From: Nageia nagi | Taxonomy: Eukaryota > Plantae > Pinophyta | Direction: 5' to 3' | Assembly: GCA_050084985.1 (NCBI GenBank) | Contig: JBITNC010000001.1 | Coordinates: 89,218,001-89,282,000, forward strand | Length of the DNA: 64,000 bases | In this document: positions 5,633-37,500 of the stretch, piece by piece | Position numbering within the stretch: position 1 is the first letter of the stretch | Layout of the letters: each line of letters begins with the position of its first letter | Position numbers and translations under genes: made by a program | Notes under the pieces: generated by a model | The model's input: the letters and a program-made list of their open reading frames with translations, nothing else | Told to the model about the DNA's origin: nothing | The model's database searches: none

Positions 5633-6079
5633 CCATACTTTGTATGAGGGTATGATCATAGGCTAGAAATTGATATTTTAGTATTGTATAATTTCATGGC
5701 TTGATTAGTTTTTCATTGTTAATGATTTTATAATAATATATAATGAATATACATGTGGCTACTAATGATCTCTTCTTTAGTCTTATTTATGTTGTTAACA
5801 ACTAAATTAGATTTTTATTTAATTAAAAACATATTTTATGTATCTAATTGACTTAATATAATTATTATCATTTTTGAGATATATTTCTTAAATAAAGAGC
5901 ATTTCAATAATTTATATTCTTTTAATGATAGGTCCAAGTAGTGCTACCCAAGATATCTTGGCTGATGGTGGAACTTCATCTATAAAGGAGGGAAAGATTG
6001 TGATGTAAATCATAATTTGGACCTTGATATATAGAGAACTCATACATTTTATGTTCAGTGTTCTTCAACACTACCTATC

Positions 6080-10000: not shown

Positions 10001-10393
10001 TTTACTCATGAGCATCATCGATATTGTTTGTAAGGTTCCTATTTGCACACATGTCTCCAAAAGTGATACACCCCTCCTACCCAAACATCAAAATCAAAAT
10101 CAATGAGGACAAGCAAAAGTTCTTAAACAATTAATCAACAAAAACAGAAATCTTGTAATTAGCACCTCCACATGCTGTCTAGGCTATCCCATGAGCAGAG
10201 AGATGTTGGGATTGGGAAGCGAGGTATACGTGGCAAATATAGGCTCTTGGCTGTTGAAAATACCATAAATGGAGGAATCCCAAATTTAAATCCAAGTCGC
10301 TATTGCTGTAAAACAGTTATGTGTAATAGTCGTCTTGATTGTTGTTACTTTAGGCAAATATTCATATCTATGACAGACTGGCATAGTTGTGCC

Positions 10394-10410
10394 TATATAT
10401 TTAGTATATA
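10394..10410 (+). promoter_or_regulatory. Candidate TATA box of SMO2
   Basis: TATATATTTAGTATATA about 150 bp upstream of the ATG at 10551, followed by a pyrimidine-rich 5' UTR-like tract. Confidence 0.4.
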
Positions 10411-10550
10411 GTTAGAGCAGTGCAGAGACAGCTGAATCTGAGAATTACAGTCTACTACAACACTCTCTCGTTTTGTTTTCTTTTTGGGCTCAGCCCCCCT
10501 TAAAAAGTGACCCGACTTGATAGGACTGAGCCTGATTATTCTGGATTTTG

Positions 10551-10580
10551 ATGGCGGCCTTGCTTGATAAAGGATGGGAG
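10551..10580 (+). CDS. SMO2: SMO2 coding exon 1
   Basis: ATG GCG GCC...TGG GAG|gtaatt = [10 protein letters not shown]. Confidence 0.85.
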
Positions 10581-13500: not shown

Positions 13501-16500
13501 TATCCATGAGTCTTACCCCTTGCTTGCCCTGTCCAATGACTTTTATGTAACCTCCTCCATAAGTCTCCTAGACCCCTATGATGATTTGAAGGCCTTTAAG
13601 AAACCTTAGTAGCCCCGTTCGAATGAGTATTGTGATGATGATCACCATGTCCATGTTCTCCATCATTGTTTATCTACTACACCTCCAATGTGAAGAGCCA
13701 TCCCATGACCATCACCATGCACACCATGAAGAGAATGAAGGCCAAAACAGCGAAACAATCATTCACCCAAGATCACAGAATTTGCAAAGCACTACAACGA
13801 AATGAAGTTCACACCAAAACTGATTGATTATTGCAGTGAATGCACCAAGAATAAATAGAATAGGTGCAAATAACTTACGGTGGCACACAGTGACAAACGG
13901 TGGCACACGGTGGCGAATCATAACAAGAAGTTGTTATGATTTTACATATGGTGGCAAATATCCTAGTGAACTTAAGTAACTAAATACTCAAGTAAATAAA
14001 ATAAATAAAACACTAATACCCCCCCTTAAGTGAAACTAGGAGGTAAAACAAGTGACACATAAAGATGAGTCCCGGCAACAAGGCCTGATTAGGTACTCAT
14101 TTACAATATCTAGCTGAAAGATGATGAAAAAACCACATGGGAAAAACCATCTATCAGCAAAGAAAGAAGAAAAAGAAAGAAAGAAAGAAAGAAAGGAAGA
14201 TGTCCTCAATCAACACCCCCCAAGGACAACTTCAGTCACCCCGAGCAAAGTTTGCAACTCAAGGAAGCGAGGCGATGCAAAGGATTTCGTGAAGATGTCG
14301 GCAATCTGCTGTTGAGTCGAAAGATACTCCAAGCTGAGAACCCCATCCTGAATATGCTGTCGAATGAAGTGCATGTGAACCTCAATATGCTTGGTTCGCT
14401 GATGCTCAACAGGATTGCGAGAAATATGAATTGCACTTTGGTTATCACAGAAGAGAACAGTAGGGTGATCCTGAGAAAAACCAAACTCAGCCAATAACTG
14501 ACGAAGCCAAAGAGCCTCCTGACTAGCTGTAACTGCTGCCTTGTACTCTGCCTCTGTAGATGATAATGCAATAGCCTGCTGCTTCTTGCATGACCAAGAT
14601 ATAGGAGAAGATCCAAGACAGAAAACATAACCAGAAGTGGAACGTCTATCATCAACTGAACCAGCCCAATCTGAATCAGTATAGCCCACTAACTCAGTAG
14701 AACCACGGCCATAGGATAAACCAAAGTGAGGTGTACCTCTCACGTATCGAAGAATGCGCTTGGCAGCTTGCCAATGACTATCATGAGGAGCCTGAGAGAA
14801 TCGAGAGAGTAAACCAACTGCATAGGAAATGTCAGGACGAGTATGGGTAAGATACAAAAGACTTCCTACCAATTGGCGATACAAGGTAGCATCACAAAGA
14901 GGAGAGGTGCAAGAAGAAGTCAATGTAACCCCAGATTGAAATGGCGTAGGAGAGGTCTTGCAATCAGTCATCCGAAAACGCTGAAGAAGATCCAAGGTAT
15001 ACTTGTGCTGACATAAAGAAATTTCTGTAGCAGTCTGATTGATCTGAAAACCAAGGAAGTAATGGGCCAATCCCAAATCTGTCATCTCAAATTGCGCTGA
15101 AAGAGAACGCTGAGCAGTCTGAATATGAGAAGAGGAACTCCCAGTGAGAAGCAAATCATCAACATAAAGAACAAGTATGGTAATGTCCTTCCCATCTCTC
15201 CAAATGTAAACGGTATTATTAGAGTAACACCTGACAAAACCAGTAGAAAGAAGAAAGGAATCCATCTTTGCATACCAAGCTCGAGGAGCTTGTTTGAGAC
15301 CATAGAGAGACTTTCGTAGTCTGCAAACAAGAGAGGCATCCTCAACAAAACCCAAAGGTTGCTCCATATAAATCTCCTCATGCAAATCTCCATGTAAGAA
15401 AGCACTCTTAACATTCATCTGAAAAATAGACCATCCCTGAGAGGCAGCAAGTGCAAGTACAAGCCAAAAGAGTATGAGATTTTTGTGCATAAAGGGAAAT
15501 TGTATGAGGCAATGGGACAAATTAGTTCAAGTATAAGTGAAAGCCTTTGGTTTCACTTAGATGGATGTAAAACCCCTTTTGAATGTATGGACAAACTTGC
15601 AAATTTGTTTGGTAAGGTTGATCACATAAGGTCTATGCAGCTTGAAGCAGAACTCACAGCACTTTCACCTGATGATTTCTCTACAATTGTTGACTACCTC
15701 ACAAAATTCAAGGAACTTCTCACACAATTAAAAGGAAGTGGTAAAAAGAAGGAAGACAAAGATTGTGTGTATCTCATTCTTTCAAAATTGAGGGGACCTT
15801 TCCAAATTTTTGCCTCTACATTTCTGTCTACTATGGATGCACTTGGGACAAATTTTACTTTGCCTAGCTTAGAAGAGTTTTGTGAAAGACTTACTAGGGA
15901 AGAGATCAAACTTTCCACTCTTGAGTCTTCTACCTCTTCTTCCAAAGCTTTAGTTGCATCCACTCCCAAAGGGAAAGGCAAATCTAAAGCTCAATCTAAA
16001 CCCACTGCAACTTCTCCCAAGCCAACTCCTTCTACAAAAAAGGAGAAATCTAACACCACTTGTACCTATTGTAAAAAGGAGGGTCATCCTGCCACTAGGT
16101 GTTGGAAAAAGTTGCAAGATTTAGAAGAAACCATAAAAAAAAATAAGGTTGTTGCCCCAAAAGAACATGGTAAAGCCCTTAATGTCCAAGGTCGATCTTC
16201 TAAATCTTTTTCACAAAAATGGGTTTTAGATTCTGGTGCTTCCCATCATATGACCTCTTCCCAAGAGTCATTCACCTTACTCTCTTCTAGTTCAACTTCT
16301 AGCATTGAGGTAGGAGACTCTACCTTTATTCCTGTTCAAGGACAAGGAGATATTGTGGTTGATGATGGTTGTATCTACAATGTATTGTATGTGCCCAATA
16401 TTTCAGCAAATCTTCTTTCCATCTATCAGATATGCACTTCAGGCACAGGGAAAATTGTTTTGTTTACCCCTCATGGAGCAGAGATTAGAAGTCTCAAGGA

Positions 16501-19500
16501 TCCACAATCACTTATTTGTCAAGGTGTTATTGATCATGATGCACGATTGTATTTCTTTGAGGGTTTTGATACTTCTTCAGGTTCATGCCTTGTTGCTCAT
16601 GCAGATTTTGAGAGTAAAATTTGGCATGAAAGATTTGGCCATCTTAATTATAGGTATTTGAAGGAGTTGAGCACTCATAATATGGTTTTGGGATTACCTA
16701 AGGTTTCCACCAGTGATGGTGTTTGTCCAGGTTGTGCACTTGGTAAACAACATCAAGATCCTTTTCCCAAAGGAAAATCCCATCGAGCATCTTCACCTTT
16801 GGAGTTGATTCATAGTGATTTGATGATTTTTCCCACACCTTCTTTCAAGGGAGCTAAGTATGCATTGCCATTTATAGATGATTTCTCAAGACGTACTTGG
16901 GTATATTTTCTCAAGTACAAAAGTGATGTTCTCTCTCACTTTAAAGTTTTCAAAGCTTTAGTTGAGAATCAGGCTTCCACATGCATCAAAAAGCTTCGTA
17001 CTGATAATGGGGGGGAGTACTTTAGCACTGAGTTTTCTGATTTTCTTACTGCACATGGGATTATACATCAACATTCTGTTCCTTACACACCTCAACAGAA
17101 TGGTGTGGCTGAGAGGAAGAATCGTACTTTGAAGGAGATGGCTAACTGCATGATGCATTCTAGAGAATTACCACCTATTTTTTGGGCTGAGGCAGTTAAT
17201 TGTGCTAATTATATTCAAAATCGTACACCCCATAGAGCTCTTGATCATATTACTCCAGAGGAGGCTTGGTCTGGAATTAAGCCTGATGTCTCATCTTTTC
17301 GAGTTTTTGGGAGTTATGCTTGGGCTCATATTCCGAAGAAGAAAAGAAAGGCTTTGGATAAGAAGAGTACACCACTCATTTTTGTTGGCTATTGTGAAGA
17401 CATGAAGGCTTATCGACTCATTGATCCTGCTACACATGATGTCTTCTTTCATACTCATGTACAATTTGATGAGCGACTTCATTGTTCTGACACTCCCTCT
17501 TCTTCTCCCCCTTCTCCTTCTCTTGATATTTCTCCTATGGTTGATATGATTGAGGATGATTCTAGCACTGCTCCTCCTTCACCAGTCACAGCACCTGCTA
17601 CCACAGTTGAGGCTTCTACATCCCTCGTTGATTCTACTAGTGCCCCTTTACCTAAGTGGGCACGAACTACTGTTGAGGAGGCTCTTCCTTTTATCCAGGA
17701 TCTTCCATCTTCTAGACGCCCTCCTTCCATTGGGACTGGCCTTGTTTGTCAGTCAATTTTGGGTGATCCCCAAACCTTTTCACAGGCACATGGAATACAG
17801 GAGTGGGATGATGCTATGAATGTTGAGTATTCTTCTTTGATGAAGAATCAGACTTGGGACTTAGTGCTTCTTCCCGAGGGAAGAAAGATGGTTCGTTGTA
17901 AGTGGGTTTACCGAACCAAGTATGCTGCTGATGGGTCTATTGATAAGTACAAAGCTCGTCTGGTAGCTAAGGGTTTTTCACAGGTTGAAGGTGTTGATTA
18001 CACTGAAACCTTTGCCCCTGTTGCTAAGATGAATTCTGTTCGGCTTGTACTTGCACTTGCTGCCTCTCAGGGATGGTCTATTTTTCAGATGGATGTTAAG
18101 AGTGCTTTCTTACATGGAGATTTGCATGAGGAGATTTATATGGAGCAACCTTTGGGTTTTGTTGAGGATGCCTCTCTTGTTTGCAGACTACGAAAGTCTC
18201 TCTATGGTCTCAAACAAGCTCCTCGAGCTTGGTATGCAAAGATGGATTCCTTTCTTCTTTCTACTGGTTTTGTCAGGTGTTACTCTGATAATACCGTTTA
18301 CATTTGGAGAGATGGGAAGGACATTACCATACTTGTTCTTTATGTTGATGATTTGCTTCTCACTGGGAGTTCCTCTTCTCATATTCAGACTGTTCAGCGT
18401 TCTCTTTCAGCGCAATTTGAGATGACAGATTTGGGATTGGCCCATTACTTCCTTGGTTTTCAGATCAATCAGACTGCTACAGAAATTTCTTTATGTCAGC
18501 ACAAGTATACCTTGGATCTTCTTCAGCGTTTTCGGATGACTGATTGCAAGACCTCTCCTACGCCATTTCAATCTGGGGTTACATTGACTTCTTCTTGCAC
18601 CTCTCCTCTTTGTGATGCTACCTTGTATCGCCAATTGGTAGGAAGTCTTTTGTATCTTACCCATACTCGTCTTGACATTTCCTATGCAGTTGGTTTACTC
18701 TCTCGATTCTCTCAGGCTCCTCATGATAGTCATTGGCAAGCTGCCAAGCGCATTCTTCGATACCTGAGAGGTACACCTCACTTTGGTTTATCCTATGGCC
18801 GTGGTTCTACTGAGTTAGTGGGCTATACTGATTCAGATTGGGCTGGTTCAGTTGATGATAAACGTTCCACTTCTGGTTATGTTTTCTGTCTTGGATCTTC
18901 TCCTATATCTTGGTCATGCAAGAAGCAGCAGGCTATTGCATTATCATCTACAGAGGCAGAGTACAGGGCAGCAGTTACAGCTAGTCAGGAGGCTCTTTGG
19001 CTTCGTCAGTTATTGGCTGAGTTTGGTTTTTCTCAGGATCACCCTACTGTTCTCTTCTGTGATAACCAAAGTGCAATTCATATTTCTCGCAATCCTGTTG
19101 AGCATCAGCGAACCAAGCATATTGAGGTTCACATGCACTTCATTCGACAGCATATTCAGGATGGGGTTCTCAGCTTGGAGTATCTTTCGACTCAACAGCA
19201 GATTGCTGACATCTTCACGAAATCCTTTGCATCGCCTCGCTTCCTTGAGTTGCAAACTTTGCTCGGGGTGACTGAAGTTGTCCTTGGGGGGTGTTGATTG
19301 AGGACATCTTCCTTTCTTTCTTTCTTTTTCTTCTTTCTTTGCTGATAGATGGTTTTTCCCATGTGGTTTTTTCATCATCTTTCAGCTAGATATTGTAAAT
19401 GAGTACCTAATCAGGCCTTGTTGCCAGGACTCATCTTTATGTGTCACTTGTTTTACCTCCTAGTTTCACTTAAGGGGGGGTATTAGTGTTTTATTTATTT

Positions 19501-22500
19501 TATTTACTTAAGTTCACTAGGATATTTGCCACCATATGTAAAATCATAACAACTTTTTGTTATGATTCGCCACCGTTTGTCACTGTGTGCCACCGTAAGT
19601 TATTTGCACCTATTCTATTTATTCTTGGTGCATTCACTGCAATAATCAATCAGTTTTGGTGTGAACTTCATTTCGTTGTAGTGCTTTGCAAATTCTGTGA
19701 TCTTGGGTGAATGATTGTTTCGCTGTTTTGGCCTTCATTCTCTTCATGGTATCAGAGAGGGTCGACCTCTGAATCTCCCTCAATTTGATCAGCAAATATG
19801 TGAGGGGGGATTGGCCTCTTTACGCCAATCCCCCCCTCATCTCCATTTTTTTTGTTGCTTTTTGATGTGTGGTAGATGACCTGTGTTTGTGCTCTTTGTG
19901 GAGAGGAAATCTACGTAGTTTGGTGGTTGTTCAGAATTTTGTGAAGGAGAAAGAGTGATGGATTTGTGGGAGGCCTAATCACCCTCTACCTGGCAGCATT
20001 TGGTTCTATTCCTTTGCAACAAGGCCATGAGTTTTTAACTCATGGGAATCAAATTGACGATGGTGGATATTGGTGATCTTTTGATTCTATTCCTTTGCAA
20101 CAAGGCCATGAATTTTAATTCATGGGAATCAAAATTGGCGATGGCGAGAGAGCCTTGTTAGCATTCAGTCTTGGAGCTTTTGGCGTCAGATTTCGTAGTT
20201 GGGTTCTCTCTCGCGTCTTTGTCTTGACAAGATCTGCATGCAGCGCGTGTTTTTCGGCCTGTGGGTTCAGGATCCCCACTCCCTGTGTTTGAGAGTCTTC
20301 TCTCGCTTCCAGCAGACGGCACCTTTGGCCGCGAGATCGTTTGCGTGATGCTCGTCTCCCTGCCGACCACCGCTGACTGTTGAAAACGTCCAGATCTGAT
20401 GCGCATCTTTCACTCAGCTCCTCGCGCAACCCTGCTCGCGGCCCTCCTGTTTGCCACTTCATTGTCGGCCCTCTTAAGCCGCTTGCGCGCGTTTCCGACT
20501 GCCTCTGCTCCTCCCACGATGGTTATGGCTGCCTCGCGATTTTTTCCCGCGTCCACGACGGCGTTGACTTTGCCTAGTCTTCGTTGCTCAGTTTCGTCGC
20601 GTTTTTCTCCTGCGCAGCCACTCGGAATGCCACGTTCGTTCGCTTGTTCGTCTCGGCGTTTCCTGCGTAGCCTGATGGTGGTCGTCGTTTCTCCCTCTTC
20701 GTTGGATGGCTTGCCTTCCTTCGATGGACTTGCATGGTGGCCCATTTTATGATTTGCTTGGAGATTTTTTATCAGCAGTTGCTCAAGAACGTCATAAAAA
20801 TGACAATCATGTTGTTTTTACATTTTTGTCAACCAAATTTACTTTTGATAGTAAATTTGGATACCCATTATCGAGCTACACCTTTTTGCTTTTTGTTTCG
20901 CTCGATTTGGAGGACAATTGAAGAAGTTGTGAAGGTCAGAAGAATTGGACCCCCACCAATTTCGAATTTAATTGGGGCAGCTTGTGTAACAGTCACGTTT
21001 TTCGAGATTGTGCTTTCATCGGGGCTCATTTTTGGGAACGGACACTTTCATGATGTTCCTCATTCCATTCCGATCGTTTTGAGTAGCTAGATGACCCATT
21101 TTCCCTTCCCCATCAACCGATAATCACAATTTGAAGTTCTGCCATTTAAATTTAATTAAATTCACTGTTTTTAATTTAATTAAAATTTTCTAATGTTTTG
21201 GGCATTAAAAATTTAATTTTTGCTCCAAAACGAATTAATTCCATAACTTTTGCAAACGGACTTCATTTTGAGTACCGTTTTTTGCATTGTGGAGCAGACT
21301 TCGAATAGTTTTTGATGAAATTGGTTGTAAGCCTAATTTATAAAGGCAAATTTTAAGGGGGGGCTTTATTTACAACTTTGTTTTGATAGGTTCCTAGGAG
21401 ACACATCATGAGGATCAAACATTTATTACAGTCTTGAATTTTTGTTCAACATCACTTTGGTTGATGTTTAGTACTGCATTATGGTTCCTCATGCTCCCAT
21501 CGACTTTTTGAAGTCGTAGTTAGTGGACTGTTTCTCTACTAAGTTGTGCGGTCATCAGCATCTTTCATGGGGGATCACTTCTTATTCTAGTTGGGAGGAC
21601 TTCTATTTGTATCCAGTTTTTTGCATCTTCCTCGTGTTGCATTCTCTTCATCGTGTTGAATCTTGGCACCAAGAGTTTTGGTGATCCATCTTCTTCGACA
21701 GTGTTCCTGAGTTCGACATCGACTTCCTTCATGGATCCTTGTACCATTTTTGGTACAGTGTTAATGGGTTCTAGGTACCATTTGGTGTGCCTTTTGCATC
21801 ATCAACAAGCTCTTCAAAGAAAAGTTCGTGCCCTAATTTCAGGTTGAGGGACTCTCTTTGTTTGTGTTGATCGAGTAGTGACTCTTTGATCCAGCTTTTG
21901 TTGGAGGTTCTTTGTTCTTCAGTTGCACATGTTCGTTATCTTTGGTCGCTCTACAACTTCTTTGTGCTTGATTCATTTTGTTAATGGGTACCTCATCAGG
22001 CCTTGTTGCCGGGACCCATATTGTACTAGTTTGCTTATGTCTACTACCTCCTAGCCTCGCTTAAAGGGGGGTGTTAGAGTTAGTTAAGCTTGCTAGGTTA
22101 GGGTATCTAACTTTAGAGTCCCTATTACCGTTGTTTTGTAAAACCATGTGCACGAACTTTTCTTTGAAGAGCTTGTTGGTGATGCAAAAGGCACACCAAA
22201 TGGTACCTAGAACCCATTAACACTGTACCAAAAATGGTACAAGGATCCATGAAGGAAGTCGATGTCAAACTCAGGAACACTGTCGAAGAAGATGGATCAC
22301 CAAAACTCATTGTGCCAAGATTCAACACGATGAAGAGAATGCAACACGAGGAAGATGCAAAAAACTGGATACAAATAGAAGTCCTCCCAACTAGAATAAG
22401 AAGTGATCCCCCATGAAAGATGCTGATGACCACATAACTTAGCAGAGAACAAGTCCACTAACTAGACTATCAAAAAGTCGACGAGAGCATGAGGAACAGT

Positions 22501-25500
22501 AATGCCGTACTAAACATCAACCAAAGTGATGTTGAACAAAAATTCAAGGCTGCAATAAGATTCGAACCTCATAATGTATCTCCTAGGAACCTGTTAAAAT
22601 AAAGTTGTAAATAGAGCCCCCTTTTGAAATTTGCCTTTATAAATTAGGCTTACAACCAATTTCATCAAAAACTATTCGAAGTCTGCTCCACAATGCAAAA
22701 AACGGCACTCAAAATGAAGTCCGTTCGCAAAAGTTATGGAATTAATTCGTTTTGGAGCAAAAATTAAATTTTTAATGCCCAAAACATTAGAAAAATTTAA
22801 TTAAATTAAAAACAGTGAATTTAATTAAATTTAAATGGCAGAACTCCAAATTGTGATTCATGATTGATGGGGGAGGCAAAATGGGTCATTCAGCTACTCA
22901 AAACGATCGGAATGGAATGAGGAACATCATGAAAGTGTCCGTTCCCAAAAATGAGCCCCGATGAAAGCACAATCTCGAAAAACGTGACTGTTACACAAGC
23001 TGCCCCAATTAAATTCGAAATTGGTGGGGGTTCAATTCTTCTGACCTTCACAACTTCTTCAATTGTCCTCCAAATCAAGCGAAACAAAAACAAAAAAGTG
23101 TAGCTCGATAATGGGTATCCAAATTTACTATCAAAAGTAAATTTGGTTGACAAAAAATGTGAAAAAACATGACTGTCATTTTTATGACGTTTTTGAGCAA
23201 CTGCTGAAAAAATCTTCAAGCAAATCATAAAATGGGCCACCATGCAAGTCCATCGAAGGAAGGCAAGCCATCCAACGAAGAGGGAGAAATGACGACCGAC
23301 ACACGGTTGTCCCAAGGCGGCAACAGCCAAACGAGGAGCACCAAAAGAGCTACGAAGATTGCAACGGAGGGAGGTCGGCAGTGGAGAGGAACGGCTACGC
23401 GAAATAGAATGGCGACGACGACCACCATCAGGCTACGCAGGAAACGCCGAGACGAACGAGCGAACGAACGTGGCATTCCGAGTGGCTGCGCAGGAGAAAA
23501 ACGCGACGAAACTGAGCAACGAAGACTAGGCAAAGTCAACGCCGTCGTGGAGCGGGAAAAAAATCGCGAGGCAGCCATAACCGTCGTGGGAGGAGCAGAG
23601 GCAGTCGGAAACGCGCGCAAGCGGCTTAAGAGGGCCGACAATGAAGCGGCAGACAGGAGGGCCGCGAGCAGGGTTGCGCGAGGAGCTGAGTGAAAGATGC
23701 GCATCAGATCTGGACGTTTTCAACAGTCAGCGGTGGTCGGCAGGGAGACGAGCATCACGCAAACGATCTCGCGGCCAAAGGTGCCGTCTGCTGGAAGCGA
23801 GAGAAGACTCTCAAACACAGGTAGTGGGGATCCTGAACCCACAGGCCGAAAAACACGCGCTGCATGTAGATCTTGTCAAGACAAAGACGCGAGAGAGAAC
23901 CCAGCTACGAAAATCTGACGCCAAAAGCTCCAAGACTGCCAAACTACGTAGATTTCCTCTCCACAAAGAGCACAAACATAGGTCATCTACCACACATCAA
24001 AAAGCAGCAAAAAAAATGGAGATGAGGGGGGGATTGGCGTAAAGAGGCCAATCCCCCCTCACAGATTTGCTGATTTCCTTTCATGGTATCAGAGCGGGTC
24101 GACCTCTGAATCTCCCTCAATTTGATCAGCAAATCTGTGAGAGGGCATCTCCATTATTTTTTTTTGCTGCTTTTTGATGTGTGGTAGATGACCTGTGTTT
24201 GTGCTCTTTGTGGAGAGGAAATCTACGTAGTTTGGTGGTTGTTCATGAATTTTGTGAAGGAGAAAGAGTGATGGATTTGTGGGAGGCCTAATCACCCTCT
24301 ACCTGGCAGCATTTGGTTCTATTCCTTTGCAACAAGGCCATGAGTTTTTAACTCATGGGAATCAAATTGACGATGGTGGATATTGGTGATCTTTTGATTC
24401 TATTCCTTTGCAACAAGGCCATGAATTTTAATTCATGGGAATCAAAATTGGCGATGGCGAGAGAGCCTTGTTAGCATTCAGTCTTGGAGCTTTTGGCGTC
24501 AGATTTTCGTAGTGGGTTCTCTCTCGCGTCTTTGTCTTGACAAGATCTGCATGCAACGCGTGTTTTTCGGCCTGTGGGTTCAGGATCCCCACTCCCTGTG
24601 TTTGAGAGTCTTCTCTCGCTTCCAGCAGACGGCACCTTTGGCCGCGAGATCGTTTGCGTGATGCTCGTCTCCCTGCCGACCACCGCTGACTGTTGAAAAC
24701 GTCCAGATCTGATGCGCATCTTTCACTCAGCTCCTCGCGCAACCCTGCTCGCGGCCCTCCTATCTGCTGCTTCATTGTCGCCCTCTTAAGCGCTTGCGTC
24801 GCGTTTCCGACTGCCTCTGCTCCTCCCACGACGGTTATGGCTGCCTCGCGATTTTTTCCCGCGTCCACGACGGCGTTGACTTTGCCTAGTCTTCGTTGCT
24901 CAGTTTCGTCGCTGTTTTTCTCCTGCGCAGCCACTCGGAATGCCACGTTCGTTCGCATCGTTCGTCTCGGCGTTTCCTGCGTAGCCTGATGGTGGTCGTC
25001 GTTTCTCCCTCTTCGTTGGATGGCTTGCCTTCCTTGATGGACTTGCATGGTGGCCCATTTTATGATTTGCTTGGAGATTTTTTATCAGCAGTTGCTCAAA
25101 AAACGTCATAAAAATGACAGTCATGTTTTTACATTTTTGTCAACCAAATTTACTTTTGATAGTAAATTTGGATACCCATTATCGAGCTACACCTTTTTGC
25201 TTTTTGTTTCGCTCGATTTGGAGGACAATTGAAGAAGTTGTGAAGGTCAGAAGAATTGGACCCCCACCAATTTCGAATTTAATTGGGGCAGCTTGTGTAA
25301 GTCACGTTTTTCGAGATTGTGCTTTCATCGGGGCTCATTTTTGGGAACGGACACTTTCATGATGTTCCTCATTCCATTCCGATCGTTTTGAGTAGCTAGA
25401 TGACCCATTTTGCCTTCCCCATCAACCGATAATCACAATTTGAAGTTCTACCATTTAAATTTAATTAAATTCACTGTTTTTAATTTAATTAAAATTTTCT

Positions 25501-28500
25501 AATGTTTTGGGCATTAAAAATTTAATTTTTGCTCCAAAACAAATTAATTCCATAACTTTTGCAAACGGACTTCATTTTGAGTACCGTTTTTTGCATTGTG
25601 GAGCAGACTTCGAATAGTTTTTGATGAAATTGGTTGTAAGCCTAATTTATAAAGGCAAATTTTAAGGGGGGGCTTTATTTACAACTTTGTTTTGATAGGT
25701 TCCTAGGAGACACATCATGAGGATCAAACATTTATTACAGTCTTGAATTTTTGTTCAACATCACTTTGGTTGATGTTTAGTACTGCATTATCATTCCTCA
25801 TGCTCCCATCGACTTTTTGATAGTCATAGTTAGTGGACTTGTTCTCTACTAAGTTGTGCGGTCATCAGCATCTTTCATGGGGGATCACTTCTTATTCTAG
25901 TTGGGAGGACTTCTATTTGTATCCAATTTTTTGCATCTTCCTCGTGTTGAATCTTGGCACAATGAGTTTTGGTGATCCATCTTCTTCGACAGTGTTCCTG
26001 AGTTCGACATCGACTTCCTTCATGGATCCTTGTACCATTTTTGGTACAGTGTTAATGGGTTCTAGGTACCATTTGGTGTGCCTTTTGCATCATCAACAAG
26101 CTCTTCAAAGAAAAGTTCGTGCCCTAATTTCAGGTTGAGGGACTCTCTTTGTTTGTGTTGATCGAGTAGTGACTCTTTGATCCAGCTTTTGTTGGAGGTT
26201 CTTTGTTCTTCAGTTGCACATGTTCATTATCTTTGGTCACTCTACAACTTCTTTGTGCTTGATTCATTTTGTTAATGGGTACCTCATCAGGCCTTGTTGC
26301 CGGGACCCATATTGTACTAGTTTGCTTATGTCTACTACCTCCTAGCCTTGCTTAAAGGGGGGTGTTAGAGTTAGTTAAGCTTGTTAGGGTATCTAACTTT
26401 AGAGTCCCTAAGTTAGTTATCATTTAATGTTTACGGTCATTGAATGTTTACGATCATTTAATGTTTACCGTTGTTTTGTAAAACCATGTGCACAATACCA
26501 TGTGCTCAAACCATGGTATTTGTTCTTGTAATGGTTTTACAAAACAACGGTAATAGGGACTCTAAAGTTAGATACCCTAACCTAGCAAGCTTAACTAACT
26601 CTAACACCCCCCTTTAAGCGAGGCTAGGAGGTAGTAGACATAAGCAAACTAGTACAATATGGGTCCCGGCAACAAGGCCTGATGAGGTACCCATTAACAA
26701 AATGAATCAAGCACAAAGAAGTTGTAGAGCGACCAAAGATAACGAACATGTGCAACTGAAGAACAAAGAACCTCCAACAAAAGCTGGATCAAAGAGTCAC
26801 TACTCGATCAACACAAACAAAGAGAGTCCCTCAACCTGAAATTAGGGCATGAACTTTTCTTTGAAGAGCTTGTTGATGATGCAAAAGGCACACCAAATGG
26901 TACCTAGAACCCATTAACACTGTACCAAAAATGGTACAAGGATCCATGAAGGAAGTCGATGTCGAACTCAGGAACACTGTCGAAGAAGATGGATCACCAA
27001 AACTCATGGTGCCAAGATTCAACACGATGAAGAGAATGCAACACGAGGAAGATGCAAAAAACTGGATACAAATAGAAGTCCTCCCAACTAGAATAAGAAG
27101 TGATCCCCCATGAAAGATGCTGATGACCGCACAACTTAGTAGAGAACAAGTCCACTAACTACGACTGTCAAAAAGTCGACGAAAGCATGAGGAATGATAA
27201 TGCAGTACTAAACATCAACCAAAGTGATGTTGAACAAAAGTTCAAGACTACAATAAGGTTTGATCCTCATGATGTGTCTCCGAGGAACCTATCAAAACAA
27301 AGTTGTAAATAAAGCCCCCCCTTAAAATTTGCCTTTATAAATTAGACTTACAACCAATTTCATCAAAAACTATTCGAAGTCTGCTCCACAATGCAAAAAA
27401 CGGCACTCAAAATGAAGTCCGTTTGCAAAAGTTATGGAATTAATTCGTTTTGGAGCAAAAATTAAATTTTTAAAGCCCAAAACATTAGAAAAATTTAATT
27501 AAATTAAAAATAGTGAATTTAATTAAATTTTAAATGGCAGAACTTCAAAACGTGATTATCGGTTGATGGGGAAGGCAAAATGGGTCATGCAGCTACTCAA
27601 AACGATCGGAATGGAATGAGGAACATCATGAAAGTGTCTGTTCCAAAAAATGAGCCCCGATGAAAGCACAATCTCGAAAAACGTGATTGTTACACAAGCT
27701 GCCCCAATTAAATTCGAAATTGGTGGGGGTTCAATTCTTCTGACCTTCACAACTTCTTCAATTGTCCTCCAAATCGAGCGAAACAAAAAGCAAAAAGGTG
27801 TAGCTCGATAATGGGTATCCAAATTTACTATCAAAAGTAAATTTGGTTGACAAAAATGTAAAAAAAAAACATGATTGTCATTTTTATGACGTTTTTGAGC
27901 AACTGCTGATAAAAAAATCTTCAAGCAAATCATAAAATGGGCCACCATGCAAGTCCATCGAAGGAAGGCAAGCCATCCAACGAAGAGGGAGAAACGACGA
28001 TCGACACACGGTTGTCCCAAGGCGGCAATAGCCAAACGAGGAGCACCAAAAGAGCTACGAAGATTGCAACGGAGGGAGGTCTGCAGTGGAGAAAGGCCGG
28101 CAATGGAGTGAGGCACGACCATGGCTAGCAGCAGAAGTCAATGCTGGCTAGACAGCGCACAGACTATGCAAACAACGGGGGAAGTCAACGCAACCGTCGT
28201 GGAAAGGAGCAGAAGGCAGCGGAAGGCGCTCGAGCGGCGTAAGGAGGCCGACAGCTAAGCGGCAGACAGGAGGGCCGCAAGCAAAAACGCGCGAGGAGCC
28301 GAGTAAAGGATGCGCGGCCAAATCTAGACAGGTTCAGCAGGCAGCAATGGACGGCAAGGTGCGAGGTGGTGAAATTATGGTAACATTCAACACCCTCCCT
28401 TAGGTTGACATAAGGGGCCAAGAATATGCTCTCTATAATCTTCATTTGAAGAAGAGGAGGTGAATGTATCATCAGTACAACACCTTCCCTTGGTAGTAGC

Positions 28501-31500
28501 TACCTTTGCTTTCAAACGAACAAAAGTGACCTGTAGCAAAGGCTTTGTGAAGATGTCTACCAACTGATTTTTTGTAGGAATATACTGCAAATTGATATCA
28601 CCATTTTGCACCTTTTTACGTATGCAATGCATATCCACCTTTGTGTGCTTGGATTGCTGATGCAATGCTCGATTCTTGGCCATGTGGATGGTACTTCAAT
28701 TATTAACCCATTTACTGTACGGTTTGACCTACCCACTTACACCCCACATTATTCTTGCCCTTCAACCGAGGAACCAACTCTCAAGTTCTGCTCTTCATTA
28801 AAGTATCATAAACTTTCAAGTTGCATTCCATGTGGGTTTTCCATGTGCCTTCTTGAAAGTAGAAGGATCATCCCTCCTTTAGCATTACACATGAAAGCAA
28901 AATTCACCCAATTTTTCTATCCATGAGTCTTACCCCTTGCTTGCCCTGTCCAATGACTTTTATGTAACCTCCTCCATAAGTCTCCTAGACCCCTATGATG
29001 ATTTGAAGGCCTTTAAGAAACCTTAGTAGCCCCGTTCGAATGAGTATTGTGATGATGATCACCATGTCCATGTTCTCCATCATTGTTTATCTACTACACC
29101 TCCAATGTGAAGAGCCATCCCATGACCATCACCATGCACACCATGAAGAGAATGAAGGCCAAAACAGCGAAACAATCATTCACCCAAGATCACAGAATTT
29201 GCAAAGCACTACAACGAAATGAAGTTCACACCAAAACTGATTGATTATTGCAGTGAATGCACCAAGAAATAAATAGAATAGGTGCAAATAACTTACGGTG
29301 GCACACAGTGACAAACGGTGGCACACGGTGGCGAATCATAACAAGAAGTTGTTATGATTTTACATATGGTGGCAAATATCCTAGTGAACTTAAGTAACTA
29401 AATACTCAAGCAAATAAAATAAATAAAACACTAATACCCCCCCTTAAGTGAAACTAGGAGGTAAAACAAGTGACACATAAAGATGAGTCCCGGCAACAAG
29501 GCCTGATTAGGTACTCATTTACAATATCTAGCTGAAAGATGATGAAAAAACCACATGGGAAAAACCATCTATCAGCAAAGAAAGAAGAAAAAGAAAGAAA
29601 GAAAGAAAGAAAGGAAGATGTCCTCAATCAACACCCCCCAAGGACAACTTCAGTCACCCCGAGCAAAGTTTGCAACTCAAGGAAGCGAGGCGATGCAAAG
29701 GATTTCGTGAAGATGTCGGCAATCTGCTGTTGAGTCGAAAGATACTCCAAGCTGAGAACCCCATCCTGAATATGCTGTCGAATGAAGTGCATGTGAACCT
29801 CAATATGCTTGGTTCGCTGATGCTCAACAGGATTGCGAGAAATATGAATTGCACTTTGGTTATCACAGAAGAGAACAGTAGGGTGATCCTGAGAAAAACC
29901 AAACTCAGCCAATAACTGACGAAGCCAAAGAGCCTCCTGACTAGCTGTAACTGCTGCCCTGTACTCTGCCTCTGTAGATGATAATGCAATAGCCTGCTGC
30001 TTCTTGCATGACCAAGATATAGGAGAAGATCCAAGACAGAAAACATAACCAGAAGTGGAACGTCTATCATCAACTGAACCAGCCCAATCTGAATCAGTAT
30101 AGCCCACTAACTCAGTAGAACCACGGCCATAGGATAAACCAAAGTGAGGTGTACCTCTCAGGTATCGAAGAATGCGCTTGGCAGCTTGCCAATGACTATC
30201 ATGAGGAGCCTGAGAGAATCGAGAGAGGAAACCAACTGCATAGGAAATGTCAGGACGAGTATGGGTAAGATACAAAAGACTTCCTACCAATTGGCGATAC
30301 AAGGTAGCATCACAAAGAGGAGAGGTGCAAGAAGAAGTCAATGTAACCCCAGATTGAAATGGCGTAGGAGAGGTCTTGCAATCAGTCATCCGAAAATGCT
30401 GAAGAAGATCCAAGGTATACTTGTGCTGACATAAAGAAATTTCTGTAGCAGTCTGATTGATCTGAAAACCAAGGAAGTAATGGGCCAATCCCAAATCTGC
30501 CATCTCAAATTGCGCTGAAAGAGAACGCTGAACAGTCTGAATATGAGAAGAGGAACTCCCAGTGAGAAGCAAATCATCAACATAAAGAACAAGGATGGTA
30601 ATGTCCTTCCCATCTCTCCAAATGTAAACGGTATTATCAGAGTAACACCTGACAAAACCAGTAGAAAGAAGAAAGGAATCCATCTTTGCATACCAAGCTC
30701 GAGGAGCTTGTTTGAGACCATAGAGAGACTTTCGTAGTCTGCAAACAAGAGAGGCATCCTCAACAAAACCCAAAGGTTGCTCCATATAAATCTCCTCATG
30801 CAAATCTCCATGTAAGAAAGCACTCTTAACATCCATCTGAAAAATAGACCATCCCTGAGAGGCAGCAAGTGCAAGTACAAGCCAAAAGAGTATGAGATTT
30901 TTGTGCATAAAGGGAAATTGTATGAGGCAATGGGACAAATTAGTTCAAGTATAAGTGAAAGCCTTTGGTTTCACTTAGATGGATGTAAAACCCCTTTTGA
31001 ATGTATGGACAAACTTGCAAATTTGTTTGGTAAGGTTGATCACATAAGGTCTATGCAGCTTGAAGCAGAACTCACAGCACTTTCACCTGATGATTTCTCT
31101 TACAATTGTTGACTACCTCACAAAATTCAAGGAACTTCTCACACAATTAAAAGGAAGTGGTAAAAAGAAGGAAGACAAAGATTGTGTGTATCTCATTCTT
31201 TCAAAATTGAGGGGACCTTTCCAAATTTTTGCCTCTACATTTCTGTCTACTATGGATGCACTTGGGACAAATTTTACTTTGCCTAGCTTAGAAGAGTTTT
31301 GTGAAAGACTTACTAGGGAAGAGATCAAACTTTCCACTCTTGAGTCTTCTACCTCTTCTTCCAAAGCTTTAGTTGCATCCACTCCCAAAGGGAAAGGCAA
31401 ATCTAAAGCTCAATCTAAACCCACTACAACTTCTCCCAAGCCAACTCCTTCTACAAAAAAGGAGAAATCTAACACCACTTGTACCTATTGTAAAAAGGAG

Positions 31501-34500
31501 GGTCATCCTGCCACTAGGTGTTGGAAAAAGTTGCAAGATTTAGAAGAAACCATAAAAAAAAATAAGGTTGTTGCCCCAAAAGAACATGGTAAAGCCCTTA
31601 ATGTCCAAGGTCGATCTTCTAAATCTTGTTCACAAAAATGGGTTTTAGATTCTGGTGCTTCCCATCATATGACCTCTTCCCAAGAGTCATTCACCTTACT
31701 CTCTTCTGGTTCAACTTCTAGCATTGAGGTAGGAGACTCTACCTTTATTCCTGTTCAAGGACAAGGAGATATTGTGGTTGATGATGGTTGTATCTACAAT
31801 GTATTGTATGTGCCCAATATTTCAGCAAATCTTCTTTCCATCTATCAGATATGCACTTCAGGCACAGGGAAAACTGTTTTGTTTACCCCTCATGGAGCAG
31901 AGATTAGAAGTCTCAAGGATCCACAATCACTTATTTGTCAAGGTGTTATTGATCATGATGCACGATTGTATTTCTTTGAGGGTTTTGATACTTCTTCAGG
32001 TTCATGCCTTGTTGCTCATGCAGATTTTGAGAGTAAAATTTGGCATGAAAGATTTGGCCATCTTAATTATAGGTATTTGAAGGAGTTGAGCACTCATAAT
32101 ATGGTTTTGGGATTACCTAAGGTTTCCACCAGTGATGGTGTTTGTCCAGGTTGTGCACTTGGTAAACAACATCAAGATCCTTTTCCCAAAGGAAAATCCC
32201 ATCGAGCATCTTCACCTTTGGAGTTGATTCATAGTGATTTGATGATTTTTCCCACACCTTTCAAGGGAGCTAAGTATGCATTGACATTTATAGATGATTT
32301 CTCAAGACGTACTTGGGTATATTTTCTCAAGTACAAAAGTGATGTTCTCTCTCACTTTAAAGTTTTCAAAGCTTTAGTTGAGAATCAGGCTTCCACATGC
32401 ATCAAAAAGCTTCGTACTGATAATGGGGGGGAGTACTTTAGCACTGAGTTTTCTGATTTTCTTACTGCTCATGGGATTATACATCAACATTCTGTTCCTT
32501 ACACACCTCAACAAAATGGTGTGGCTGAGAGGAAGAATCGTACTTTGAAGGAGATGGCTAACTGCATGATGCATTCTAGAGAATTACCACCTATTTTTTG
32601 GGCTGAGGCAGTTAATTGTGCTAATTATATTCAAAATCGTACACCCCATAGAGCTCTTGATCATATTACTCCAGAGGAGGCTTGGTCTGGAATTAAGCCT
32701 GATGTCTCATCTTTTCGAGTTTTTGGGAGTTATGCTTGGGCTCATATTCCGAAGAAGAAAAGAAAGGCTTTGGATAAGAAGAGTACACCACTCATTTTTG
32801 TTGGCTATTGTGAAGACATGAAGGCTTATCGACTCATTGATCCTGCTACACATGATGTCTTCTTTCATACTCATGTACAGTTTGATGAGCGACTTCATTG
32901 TTCTGACACTCCCTCTTCTTCTCCCCCTTCTCCTTCTCTTGATATTTCTCCTATGGTTGATATGATTGAGGATGATTCTAGCACTGCTCCTCCTTCACCA
33001 GTCACAGCACCTGCTACCACAGTTGAGGCTTCTACATCCCTCGTTGATTCTACTAGTGCCCCTTTGCCTAAGTGGGCACGAACTACTGTTGAGGAGGCTC
33101 TTCCTTTTATCCAGGATCTTCCATCTTCTAGACGCCCTCCTTCCATTGGGACTGGCCTTGTTTGTCAGTCAATTTTGGGTGATCCCCAAACCTTTTCACA
33201 GGCACATGGAATACAGGAGTGGGATGATGCTATGAATGTTGAGTATTCTTCTTTGATGAAGAATCAGACTTGGGACTTAGTGCTTCTTCCCGAGGGAAGA
33301 AAGATGGTTCGTTGTAAGTGGGTTTACCGAACCAAGCTGATGGGTCTATTGATAAGTACAAAGCTCGTCTGGTAGCTAAGGGTTTTTCACAGGTTGAAGG
33401 TGTTGATTACACTGAAACCTTTGCCCCTGTTGCTAAGATGAATTCTGTTCGGCTTGTACTTGCACTTGCTGCCTCTCAGGGATGGTCTATTTTTCAGATG
33501 GATGTTAAGAGTGCTTTCTTACATGGAGATTTGCATGAGGAGATTTATATGGAGCAACCTTTGGGTTTTGTTGAGGATGCCTCTCTTGTTTGCAGACTAC
33601 GAAAGTCTCTCTATGGTCTCAAACAAGCTCCTCGAGCTTGGTATGCAAAGATGGATTCCTTTCTTCTTTCTACTGGTTTTGTCAGGTGTTACTCTGATAA
33701 TACCGTTTACATTTGGAGAGATGGGAAGGACATTACCATACTTGTTCTTTATGTTGATGATTTGCTTCTCACTGGGAGTTCCTCTTCTCATATTCAGACT
33801 GTTCAGCGTTCTCTTTCAGCGCAATTTGAGATGACAGATTTGGGATTGGCCCATTACTTCCTTGGTTTTCAGATCAATCAGACTACAGAAATTTCTTTAT
33901 GTCAGCACAAGTATACCTTGGATCTTCTTCAGCGTTTTCGGATGACTGATTGCAAGACCTCTCCTACGCCATTTCAATCTGGGGTTACATTGACTTCTTC
34001 TTGCACCTCTCCTCTTTGTGATGCTACCTTGTATCGCCAATTGGTAGGAAGTCTTTTGTATCTTACCCATACTCGTCCTGACATTTCCTATGCAGTTGGT
34101 TTACTCTCTCGATTCTCTCAGGCTCCTCATGATAGTCATTGGCAAGCTGCCAAGCGCATTCTTCGATCCCTGAGAGGTACACCTCACTTTGGTTTATCCT
34201 ATGGCCGTGGTTCTACTGAGTTAGTGGGCTATACTGATTCAGATTGGGCTGGTTCAGTTGATGATAGACGTTCCACTTCTGGTTATGTTTTCTTCTTGGA
34301 TCTTCTCCTATATCTTGGTCATGCAAGAAGCAGCAGGCTATTGCATTATCATCTACAGAGGCAGAGTACAGGGCAGCAGTTACAGCTAGTCAGGAGGCTC
34401 TTTGGCTTCGTCAGTTATTGGCTGAGTTTGGTTTTTCTCAGGATCACCCTACTGTTCTCTTCTGTGATAACCAAAGTGCAATTCATATTTCTCGCAATCC

Positions 34501-37500
34501 TGTTGAGCATCAGCGAACCAAGCATATTGAGGTTCACATGCACTTCATTCGACAGCATATTCAGGATGGGGTTCTCAGCTTGGAGTATCTTTCGACTCAA
34601 CAGCAGATTGCCGACATCTTCACGAAATCCTTTGCATCGCCTCGCTTCCTTGAGTTGCAAACTTTGCTCGGGGTACTGAAGTTGTCCTTGGGGGTGTTGA
34701 TTGAGGACATCTTCCTTTCTTTCTTTCTTTCTTTCTTTTTCTTCTTTCTTTGCTGATAGATGGTTTTTCCCATGTGGTTTTTTCATCATCTTTCAGCTAG
34801 ATATTGTAAATGAGTACCTAATCAGGCCTTGTTGCTGGGACTCATCTTTATGTGTCACTTGTTTTACCTCCTAGTTTCACTTAAGGGGGGGTATTAGTGT
34901 TTTATTTATTTTATTTACTTGAGTATTTAGTTACTTAAGTTCACTAGGATATTTGCCACCATATGTAAAATCATAACAACTTCTTGTTATGATTCGCACG
35001 GTGCACGTTGTCACTGTGTGCCACCGTAAGTTATTTGCACCTATTCTATTTATTCTTGGTGCATTCACTGCAATAATCAATCAGTTTTGGTGTGAACTTC
35101 ATTTCGTTGTAGTGCTTTGCAAATTCTGTGATCTTGGGTGAATGATTGTTTTCGCTGTTTTGGCCTTCATTCTCTTCAATCACGCAAAGATCTCGCGGCC
35201 AAAGGCGCCAACTGCCGTGAGCGTGAGAAAAATTCTCAGACGCAAGGAGTGGGGATTCTGAACCCACAAGCCGAAAAACACACGCATGAAGATCCGTCAA
35301 GATAAGAGCGCGAGAGAGAACCCAGCTTAAAAAAGGAAAAACTTCAAAACAATGCTTGCAAATTTGAACTGCTCTGGTACCATGAAGAGAATGAAGGCCA
35401 AAACAGCGAAACAATCATTCACCCAAGATCACAGAATTTGCAAAGCACTACAACGAAATGAAGTTCACACCAAAACTGATTGATTATTGCAGTGAATGCA
35501 CCAAGAATAAATAGAATAGGTGCAAATAACTTACGGTGGCACACAGTGACAAACGGTGGCACACGGTGGCGAATCATAACAAGAAGTTGTTATGATTTTA
35601 CATATGGTGGCAAATATCCTAGTGAACTTAAGTAACTAAATACTCAAGTAAAAATAAAACACTAATACACCACTGTGGTCCTTATGAGAAGTAATAGAAG
35701 TTAGAATCTCACATTCACCATGATGCCTGTATGCAGAACATGAGGCCTATTATGAACATTTTAAGTATTGAAGGGATGATTCACCAGTGATTTTGGTTCA
35801 TTATTTGAATATTTGTCATCCACATGGGAAAATAGAGTGCACCAACATTCAGAGCTTGGAAAAAGGTGTAAGAAAAGAATCACTTGAATTGTCTTCACAG
35901 CTGCAAAGATATGGCCCAAGTATGCTAATTGCAATCTTTTATCCTCTGCCAATTCTATAATGCTGTTGCTCAAGGAATATGATTTTTCTGTTGAGTTGAA
36001 TTATTATAATTTTGGTTCCATTGTTTCCATTATAAATATGCAAAAACAAAACATAGTAGAATCAGCAGCCTCTAGCGGATACTGAATGGTCAAATTTTCA
36101 ACAGTGGTCAAATATCTCAAATTTCAATGATGACAATCAATACCAGTAACAACCACATTGATGACCAGCTCAATGATATCAATTGTACTGTCAGTGTCCC
36201 ATACAGCTACAGCCCTAATATTCCACACCATGTTTTGTCAACCAAAATCATAGCTCAGGTGTCTAGGGGAGAGAACTTGGAACGTCCCACAACTCAGCTA
36301 GCTAGGCAAGCTCAGTTGTCCATTGAGTAGGGACTACACTCCCCTACCTTAAAGCAATGCCGGATTCTAATAATATTTGGGTATTTTCTACATACACAGA
36401 TCTAAAGATGCATATGCACGAATGGTCTCACTTTTGTTGGCCTTGCCATTTGTAGTTTAATGAAATGTTTTACATAATATTCACTCTTTCTTATTTATGC
36501 AGAATTAAAAGTGATGAGCATGATGGCTTCTTGTTCTTGATAACACTAATAACTTGGACTACTCATTGTTGTTTTTTTATTTTATCTAATAGTAAATAGT
36601 GTTGGTCTGTTTTTTTAACAAATTTGTATACGTGGATGTTTTAAATTTTTAATGGATGACCTTTTTTCCCAGTAATTAAACATGTGTATGGAAAAATGCA
36701 TTTTTTTGTGTACCTGTCTATGTATTATTTCAATTTGTTGACCTATGCATTGTTAGGAGCATATATAATAATATAGTTTTGTGTGTTACTAAATTGGACA
36801 AGTGGATATGCCTCAAGGAGAGGGTGTGGAATTTGGATTTACAAAAATGGAGCATATATAATATATATTTATGTTAAATAAAAATGGATGAGTGGATATG
36901 CCTAAAATGAAGTATAGAGAATTTGGATTTAGTACTTACACATGCATGTGTGTGGTGTAAAAAGCGATTTTATCATGTTACTGTAAAAATACAGAATTGT
37001 TTTATATGTTATCTGAGACAGTCAGGCATGAGTTGACTTATACAGACATTATGATATAGTGCAGTATAGGATATATATACAAAACATGCTGTAAATGAGA
37101 ACTCACATTAGAACTTTTTTTAGAATTTCTATGTTTAATTTAATATTGGCTCGAAGCAAAACTAAACCACAGTAGTCCTGGACATGAATGTTTCAAACAT
37201 TAAGCAAAATTTCAACCTCGATATACTGGTAGTCCACACCTTAGCTTAGGCTCTAGAAAGGTATCCTTTCCCATTCCTTAACTGTCTGTTACATCATACT
37301 TCACAGAATATAGTAGTATAATTTCTCAGAGCAAGTGCTATGTAGATGCAGAATTTAAATTTTGTTTACCATCCAGATCCTGGTGATGCTTGATTGGAGC
37401 TCCCTTTCCCTTTCCACTTGTTGGTCAACATTTGAGCTCATTTTAAACCATGTTGGATGGAAAAAGCGCTCCAATTTCATCCATGACCTTTTTCTTCTGT

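Follow-up and report, generated by a model that had tools for sequence, protein, structure and literature searches.

A window of 64,000 nucleotides (nt) from Nageia nagi (contig JBITNC010000001.1 of assembly GCA_050084985.1, forward-strand positions 89,218,001 to 89,282,000) carries an insertion of about 22 kb that, measured from one target-site duplication (TSD) to the other, occupies 13722..35672. Its outer ends are the precise ends of a Ty1/Copia retrotransposon, and its interior consists of rearranged and partly inverted pieces of two element families, here called A (coding) and N (non-coding). Within this interior, a 6.8-kb duplicate repeats the left end of the insertion together with host flank, the left TSD and the joint between the long terminal repeat (LTR) and the target. 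Because these three exist only after strand transfer, the duplicate cannot predate integration, and it either arose after strand transfer or is an assembly duplication. We give about even weight to the reading that host break repair built the interior in place, in a single episode, either while integration was under way or soon afterwards.

The first-pass annotation of this DNA had proposed that several cDNAs were joined into one molecule, which was then integrated once behind a single TSD. The TSD is not single, as the duplicate starts 769 bp outside the element, at 12953, and thereby places a third CACCA copy at 29139-29143. Integration of one molecule likewise fails for the 6.8-kb duplicate. 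The pieces of the remaining 15 kb may have been joined before or just after integration. Self-comparison together with the sequence did reproduce the segment order given previously, namely A(-), A(+), N(+), N(-), N(+), N(-), duplicate, leader(-), LTR(-), with eight segments lying inside the insertion (Table 1).

Outer ends and empty site

On both sides of the insertion, CACCA stands directly against a precise LTR end (TSDs at 13722 and 35668), the chance of one given 5-mer in the flanks being 4.5e-4. The outer LTRs (13727-14018 and 35383-35667) match without a single substitution, a 7-bp deletion being their only difference, and the primer-binding site (PBS; 35372-35382, minus strand) and polypurine tract (PPT; 14019-14027, minus strand) are in the correct places for a minus-strand element, all as first annotated. 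The PBS is presumably of the initiator-Met type. Copia integrase makes 5-bp TSDs, and it is established for Copia that such joints, here both outer ones, are made by integrase. Among plant elements, 93.4% have 5-bp TSDs (PMC6317226). The LTR-A termini are TA..CA, and not TG..CA, in 5/5 LTR-A copies, and a depth-196 contig of sequencing run X3 that matches to 35666 backs the TA start as a family trait. Programs that accept only LTRs with TG..CA ends would overlook this family.

Contigs from sequencing runs of related organisms (X1, X2, X3 and X4) were compared with the window over 26495-33440 and 35165-37740, and records of X2 and X4 were paired between the two flank comparisons by length and depth. 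A contig of X2 (2336 nt, depth 5.17) aligned with 35667-36141 from record position 464 to 1 and with the left-flank copy 29094-28371 from 518 to 1250, while a contig of X4 (1252 nt, depth 5.74) had 35667 at record position 949 and 29093 at 1006. These empty-site contigs hold about 53-56 unaligned letters where the window holds 44-45, and their flanks are about 91% identical to those of the window. The empty site suggested as a check on the first-pass annotation is thus represented by two contigs running from the right flank into the left flank. Judged from alignment positions rather than from letters at the site, the flanks are contiguous in two related organisms, so that this reads as a real insertion site.

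The duplicate and the copied host flank

The duplicate diverges from its original by 0.4%, with 19 transitions among its 28 substitutions, and contains none of the private alleles of the original. Both A(+) copies stop exactly at the CA end of the LTR, yet they join different partners. The copied flank has a depth of 0-10 in the four runs, as single-copy host DNA, versus hundreds to thousands for the element, and in X2 it continues as flank past 28371. This flank is itself the decayed 3′ end (ribonuclease H (RNase H), PPT and LTR start) of an older minus-strand Copia element, to which tblastn matches were found at 13063-13452 with 37-53% identity.

Element A and its copies

A(+) holds one open frame of 1299 codons, in which Pfam placed Retrotran_gag_2, Pol_BBD, gag_pre-integrs, rve and RVT_2 in the order of a Ty1/Copia polyprotein. 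Pfam gave no RNase H match, and the RNase H region was located by alignment to protein P0003 through its C-terminus. A also has the LTR pair, PBS, PPT and 5-bp TSD of a Ty1/Copia element. The best named matches of its polyprotein were P0001 of Taxus chinensis (48% over the first 500 residues) and PITA-labelled proteins, which we take to be from loblolly pine. A resembles these gymnosperm Ty1/Copia elements in domain order and protein identity, and is set off from them by its TA..CA LTR termini. Metagenome loci yielded four relatives at 41-49% protein identity without LTR or leader similarity, and viral contigs searched by protein and by LTR/PBS pattern yielded nothing. In X1, both families showed high copy number, with a summed depth of mostly 80-600 over A and 190-450 over N, and 0-2 over the flank.

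The four copies of the A 3′ end were aligned over the 1688 ungapped columns left after taking out columns with gaps, an error-like patch of 20 columns and, at the joint, the first 4 columns. This alignment revealed 16 private substitutions (5/5/4/2) and 0 shared ones, with a 95% upper bound of 0.18% on the internal branch among the four copies. Because of this pattern, A(-), A(+) and the duplicate are best read as one sequence, from the same molecule or from identical siblings, and the inversion and the duplication as being of indistinguishable age. The star pattern lends moderate support to formation of all copies at one time. At gymnosperm rates, the divergence of about 0.24% per lineage would correspond to roughly 1-3 million years. 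An origin of A(-) and A(+) from different source loci was rejected, with 0 shared-derived sites in the 1688 columns. At 3/4 sites checked, the alleles common to all four copies differ from the majority in X1. The earlier suggestion of several different cDNAs is supported for N (53/1135 differences between N1 and N2 and 30/1115 between N3 and N4, versus 8/1688 between A copies), and is not supported for A(-) and A(+).

The N pieces

Throughout 19747-28369, none of 120 relatives gave a tblastn match, and coding remnants in N were rejected on this basis. N carries a PBS and a PPT, and its 3′ untranslated region (UTR) and leader are 76% and 82% identical, respectively, to A-side sequence; with no coding capacity and a leader similar to that of A, it has the features of a non-autonomous partner. 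All three pieces of its LTR (LTR-B) are truncated, and comparison with X1-X4 contigs revealed that the family LTR-B continues past 26531 toward a TATA-like motif.

Pairwise, N2 is the most distant piece (49/1111 differences from N3 and 53/1136 from N4, in addition to the N1 value above), N1 and N4 differ at 31/1139 positions, and N1 and N3 are the closest at 13/1115. In agreement with the first-pass annotation, N1/N3 are set apart from N2/N4 in the body by shared indels and single-nucleotide polymorphisms (SNPs), at 9/12 two-versus-two sites; at the 3′ end, N1/N4 go together against N3. N1 is identical to N4 over its last 312 bp and differs from it at 27/811 positions upstream (p 2.5e-4); this upstream part differs from N3 at 7/806, a level compatible with that of the A copies (p 0.27). 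N1 is thus a mosaic of N3 and N4 types, and three N templates suffice.

The adjacent inverted N pairs differ by 4.7% and 2.7%, mostly through transitions (37/53 and 23/30). Simple fold-back was rejected for N1/N2 and N3/N4, as these inverted neighbours are less alike than the same-strand pieces N1 and N3. This bears out the earlier view that the N block did not arise by simple fold-back, with the amendment that its four pieces need three templates, one piece being the mosaic N1.

Behind the PBS, a G/C-rich inverted repeat is present at 19813-19838 in N1 and at 24031-24056 in N2, and is largely deleted in N3. In N1 and N2 it is a candidate for a predicted dimerisation or packaging hairpin. The PBS of the LTR-A family has one mismatch versus the N-type PBS.

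Joints between segments

Joint 19746 combines an exact LTR end with a PBS. It shares 8 bp with the outer LTR/TSD joint and with the LTR/PBS joint of N3, since the minus strand of the TSD resembles the start of a PBS. Specifically, the first four bases of the TSD at 13722-13726 on the strand of the element are those that open a PBS, which gives the 8 bp of identity between LTR/target and LTR/PBS joints. Among the joints scored, microhomology further amounts to 4 bp at 22150, 1-3 bp at 26531, 6 bp at 35322 and 0-1 bp at 35178, an exact LTR end. At 28370, a microhomology of about 4 bp is suggested by one X1 contig that aligned ungapped from N4 through 28373.

The 6-bp jump within the leader (35322-35327) was apparent against two X1 contigs, and one X1 contig with a leader 95% like that at 35179 continues differently. 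In N1 coordinates, the end of N4 and the start of the leader adjoin within about 5 bp, and by position the duplicate probably interrupts what was one N4-leader molecule. In X2 and X4, joints from 30881 to 33428/33439 on opposite strands correspond to the normal collinear reverse-transcriptase region of other family members.

Inner TSDs, which the first-pass annotation had named as a sign of ordinary nesting, were rejected: 0/8 internal segments have flanking repeats of 4-6 bp within 3 bp of their ends. Nor does any inner element have its own TSD and LTR pair, as nested insertions would, all LTR-B pieces being truncated. The interior contains no captured foreign flank, and no LTR-B was crossed.

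Table 1. Segments of the insertion and of the copied host flank (RT, reverse transcriptase)
Feature	Position	Strand	Evidence or remark
Host flank, copied inside the insertion	12953..13721	.	99.9% identity to 28370-29138; single-copy depth in relatives
Left TSD, CACCA	13722..13726	.	Abuts LTR end
3′ LTR-A, 292 bp, TA..CA termini, U5 end joined to target	13727..14018	-	LTR comparison
A(-) of the inserted element: PPT, 3′ UTR and RNase H region, with the 3′ part of its RT	14019..15465	-	RVT_2 E 9e-52; 97.4% to 18039-19750, inverted
A(+): gag (about 25 N-terminal codons absent), protease, integrase, RT and RNase H region in one open frame, then PPT	15466..19480	+	Pfam; P0001 match begins at residue 24
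Internal LTR-A, 266 bp, two private deletions, stops exactly at its own CA end	19481..19746	+	LTR comparison
N1: non-coding leader and body behind a PBS, then PPT and, from 22072, the first ~80 bp of LTR-B; 5′ part N3-like, 3′ part N4-identical	19747..22149	+	Alignments; no tblastn match from 120 relatives
N2: internal N fragment from a distinct template, without either end; 242-bp leader deletion at 23938/23939	22150..24074	-	4.4-4.7% from N1, N3 and N4
N3: ~10 bp from the end of an LTR, PBS (24084), leader, body, PPT and, from 26363, the first ~170 bp of LTR-B	24075..26530	+	Alignments; family LTR-B runs past 26531
N4: 76 bp of LTR-B, PPT, body, divergent leader (78% to N2) adjoining the stop position of the 35179 leader	26531..28369	-	Alignments
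Duplicate, direct copy of 12953-19746	28370..35178	+	28 substitutions and 13 indel events versus original
Contents of duplicate: flank 28370-29138, TSD copy 29139-29143, LTR, A(-), inversion joint 30883/30884, A(+) with several frameshifts, LTR to CA			
Leader: ~50 bp A-type, then jump at 35322-35327 into a downstream leader segment	35179..35371	-	82% to N1-N3 leaders; X1 loose ends at 35322 and 35327
PBS of outer element, one mismatch	35372..35382	-	Sequence
5′ LTR-A, 285 bp, U3 end joined to target	35383..35667	-	LTR comparison
Right TSD, CACCA	35668..35672	.	Abuts LTR end

Origin of the interior

From the observed anatomy, the empty site, the flank and TSD within the duplicate and the equal age of the A 3′ copies, we infer the following steps. 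Integrase would have joined one U5 and one U3 end of LTR-A with a 5-bp stagger, after which the new element would have broken or stayed unjoined inside, leaving a left arm of 1.7 kb and a right arm of about 0.35 kb. The left arm would then have been extended by an identical sibling cDNA, in inverted orientation, up to its natural free LTR end. Replication of this unrepaired arm would provide two sister ends at the same CA, which would explain the odd finding that both A(+) copies stop there yet have different partners. One sister end would have been joined at the PBS to N cDNA pieces, and from the other a 6.8-kb fragment would have been inserted between N4 and the leader, with microhomologies of 0-8 bp. 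Such a process would likely resemble T-DNA concatenation or aberrant retroviral integration, and not reverse-transcriptase template switching alone. That no foreign flank was captured and no LTR-B crossed would favour free cDNA donors. More tentatively, and with some doubt, one integration may have captured at least five cDNAs of two co-mobilised families (two of A and three of N) together with a piece of the sister chromatid, and a single intasome possibly joined ends from two different cDNAs.

Among the 16 private changes in A, 10 are C>T/G>A (p 1e-5), and 7 of these 10 lie at CG/CHG (p 0.005), an excess as would be expected for methylated DNA ageing in vivo. Moreover, the inversion joint of 15465 is present in both diverged copies, which, together with inverted N pairs being less alike than same-strand ones, argues against fold-back reads.

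A number of observations weigh against assembly by break repair in one episode. If the duplicate had formed at any time since the inversion (uniform coalescence time), the star pattern would still have a P of about 0.11, and young family members may be near-identical, so that their reading as one sequence does not separate fold-back from sibling cDNA. From this window, cDNA donors are also indistinguishable from ectopic chromosomal donors, and one X3 contig elsewhere consists of an LTR-A end, a PBS and an N-type leader, so that the 19746 joint may be a family feature. The internal junctions have no independent read or contig support: when reads of the locus were sought with 6000-15400, 0/24 listed runs held half of the words (best share 0.15), and 20/24 had a small share matching the element part only. 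The deamination signal is uneven, with the left copies holding 8 of the 10 C>T/G>A changes and the duplicate showing them at 2/6 of its private changes. Lastly, doubled letters are repeatedly lost at 34997-35007 in the duplicate, and N3 has scattered 1-bp indels (24770-25330), both error-like. These patches look like long-read errors and suggest a weak consensus, and error-prone repair synthesis could leave them too. They keep an assembly explanation alive, which we regard as somewhat unlikely. Among the matches listed, no X1-X4 contig bridges 26531, 28370, 30884 or 35178; since these runs lack the locus, this counts neither for nor against the joints.

Among the rivals, tandem placement of two haplotypes by the assembly is the most serious; we consider it unlikely. 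Allele 1 would be 12953-28369 and allele 2 28370-35178, both running into the leader at 35179. The inversion joint would then be genuine and the duplicate spurious, with the N block confined to one allele. The two branches indeed share their flank start (12953) and leader end (35179), the duplicate ends without TSD or loss, and a divergence of 0.4% is a plausible allelic level; the error-like patches point the same way. It is disfavoured by the zero shared-derived sites (P about 0.11 under uniform coalescence time) and by the X1 contig that runs ungapped four bases into the duplicate, suggesting the 4-bp microhomology by position (its letters not seen), and allele 2 would still require the middle of the leader to be joined to an LTR end. 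False heterotype duplications occur commonly, and often within one scaffold, but they are mostly gap-separated (PMC9516828), and the window contains 0 N.

It is rather unlikely that a 15-kb LTR-A-ended substrate was put together from A(-), A(+), N1-N4 and the leader ahead of integration, and that the flank-bearing duplicate was added shortly after. The TSD with identical outer LTRs and the three N templates would fit such a substrate, as would reports that ascribe single-TSD complexes to template switching (PMC1950507) or to recombination before integration (10.1101/452573), and one of family members recombining during bursts (PMC5668417). However, the published complexes are collinear and share LTRs, whereas four strand reversals are found here and all LTR-B are cut off. 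A second rearrangement at the same locus and at an indistinguishable time would also be needed, and the duplicate's stop exactly at the LTR end, instead of running into N1, would be left unexplained.

That the zigzag within an otherwise ordinary element arose in the library or in the reads, through fold-back reads or amplification chimeras, appears improbable. Inverted segments with short microhomology are typical of read chimeras, and both the error-like patches and the missing read support for the joints are compatible with one. Against this, the 15465 inversion joint occurs in two copies diverged by methylation-type mutations, A(+) retains its 1299-codon frame, the duplicate lacks all private alleles of the original, and the inverted N pairs are 4.7% and 2.7% apart, mostly by transitions, with same-strand N1 and N3 the closest.

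Still less probable is ordinary nesting of young A and N elements, followed by deletions or later template switching to dispersed genomic copies. Both families are high-copy and the precise LTR end at 35178 resembles an integrase joint, but the internal segments lack flanking repeats (0/8), no internal element has two LTRs, all copies equal the outer LTRs in age, and host flank was copied. We assign little probability to a retrotransposed read-through transcript starting at 12953, which would explain the precise LTR end but not an insertion 15 kb from its source, and as little to action of the hAT-type transposase gene at 45758-47116 on the locus, no terminal inverted repeats having been noted at the joints.

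Other features of the window

The window is AT-rich intergenic DNA. The minus-strand frame at 45758-47116 (452 codons) contains DUF659 (E 9e-59), a domain we take to be typical of hAT transposases. In the right flank, head-to-tail duplications lie at 43380-43809 (215 bp, 100%), 40817-41190 (188 bp, 96%) and 37752-38245 (about 246 bp, 85%). An inverted repeat at 61877-62164/62405-62692 (290 bp, 75%) and a 110-bp palindrome at 47683-47792 (79%) are possibly old elements resembling MITEs (miniature inverted-repeat transposable elements). Decayed reverse-transcriptase-type remnants at 371-565, 41897-42181 and 50772-51189 match the non-Copia part of P0113.

Relation to known systems

T-DNA concatemers and the products of fork stalling and template switching (FoSTeS) or microhomology-mediated break-induced replication (MMBIR) show head-to-head and tail-to-tail joints, microhomology and filler copied from the flank. 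Unlike in these, endogenous retroelement copies serve as donors here, and joints of the integrase type bound the insertion.

Three-LTR complexes with a TSD are known and collinear (Sabot and Schulman 2007, PMC1950507; Zeng and Sun, 10.1101/452573), and tandem LTR-retrotransposon arrays occur in plants, more complex arrays having been set aside by the authors (PMC11899658). The present insertion shares with them one 5-bp TSD outside, near-identical outer LTRs and an internal LTR between PPT and PBS (19481-19746). The TSD and the outer LTRs being the most similar pair also fit a three-LTR template switch; two complete same-orientation cores without host DNA were not found. Those complexes consist of complete same-orientation cores of one family, whereas here the strand reverses four times, the pieces are truncated and come from two families, and a copy of host flank with the TSD lies in the interior.

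In aberrant HIV (human immunodeficiency virus) integrations, viral DNA, in either orientation, and host DNA from nearby are added on by host polymerase, using several templates in succession and short homologies (Varadarajan et al. 2016, PMC5041404). The resulting host duplications range from hundreds to thousands of bp; of the two viral ends one is aberrant, and no short TSD is retained (PMC5041404). The Nageia insertion is similar in having element DNA appended in either orientation and a large copy of nearby host DNA, and differs in that both outer ends are precise with a TSD and the rearrangement is internal.

Complex L1 insertions include multi-cDNA insertions and sister-end fold-backs (PMC11702581), and at yeast breaks two to four fragments are captured, Ty DNA among them (PMC11372161). 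Opposite-orientation reverse-transcribed pieces at one site, local duplications and, in the reading favoured here, paired sister ends from replication of an unrepaired end are common to these and our locus. Unlike here, L1 is target-primed and non-LTR and the yeast breaks were induced and filled with short fragments; neither has an integrase-made TSD or a fixed plant germline allele. Bursts in Arabidopsis have produced recombinant ONSEN copies (PMC5668417) and truncated or chimeric EVD forms (PMC10462705), and rearrangements have been reported for a DNA transposon pair (PMC12312487). In the literature searched, mostly open texts without supplements, we found no LTR-retrotransposon insertion in which two precise ends enclose an inverted interior of two families holding its own target junction.

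A TSD with identical outer LTRs is routinely taken as proof of one inserted molecule, and is the basis on which template-switch complexes are recognised in the literature. The present locus is a single counter-example, with its own target junction copied inside. If real, integration-coupled repair tripled the inserted length, mixed an autonomous element with a non-coding one and duplicated host DNA in the germline. If, as in the more tentative reading, one integration captured several cDNAs of both families, LTR retrotransposition bursts would produce inverted concatemers of several families, similar to those of T-DNA, behind a perfectly normal TSD and LTR pair. LTR finders would count such concatemers as single intact elements, and in giant conifer genomes they would be countable.

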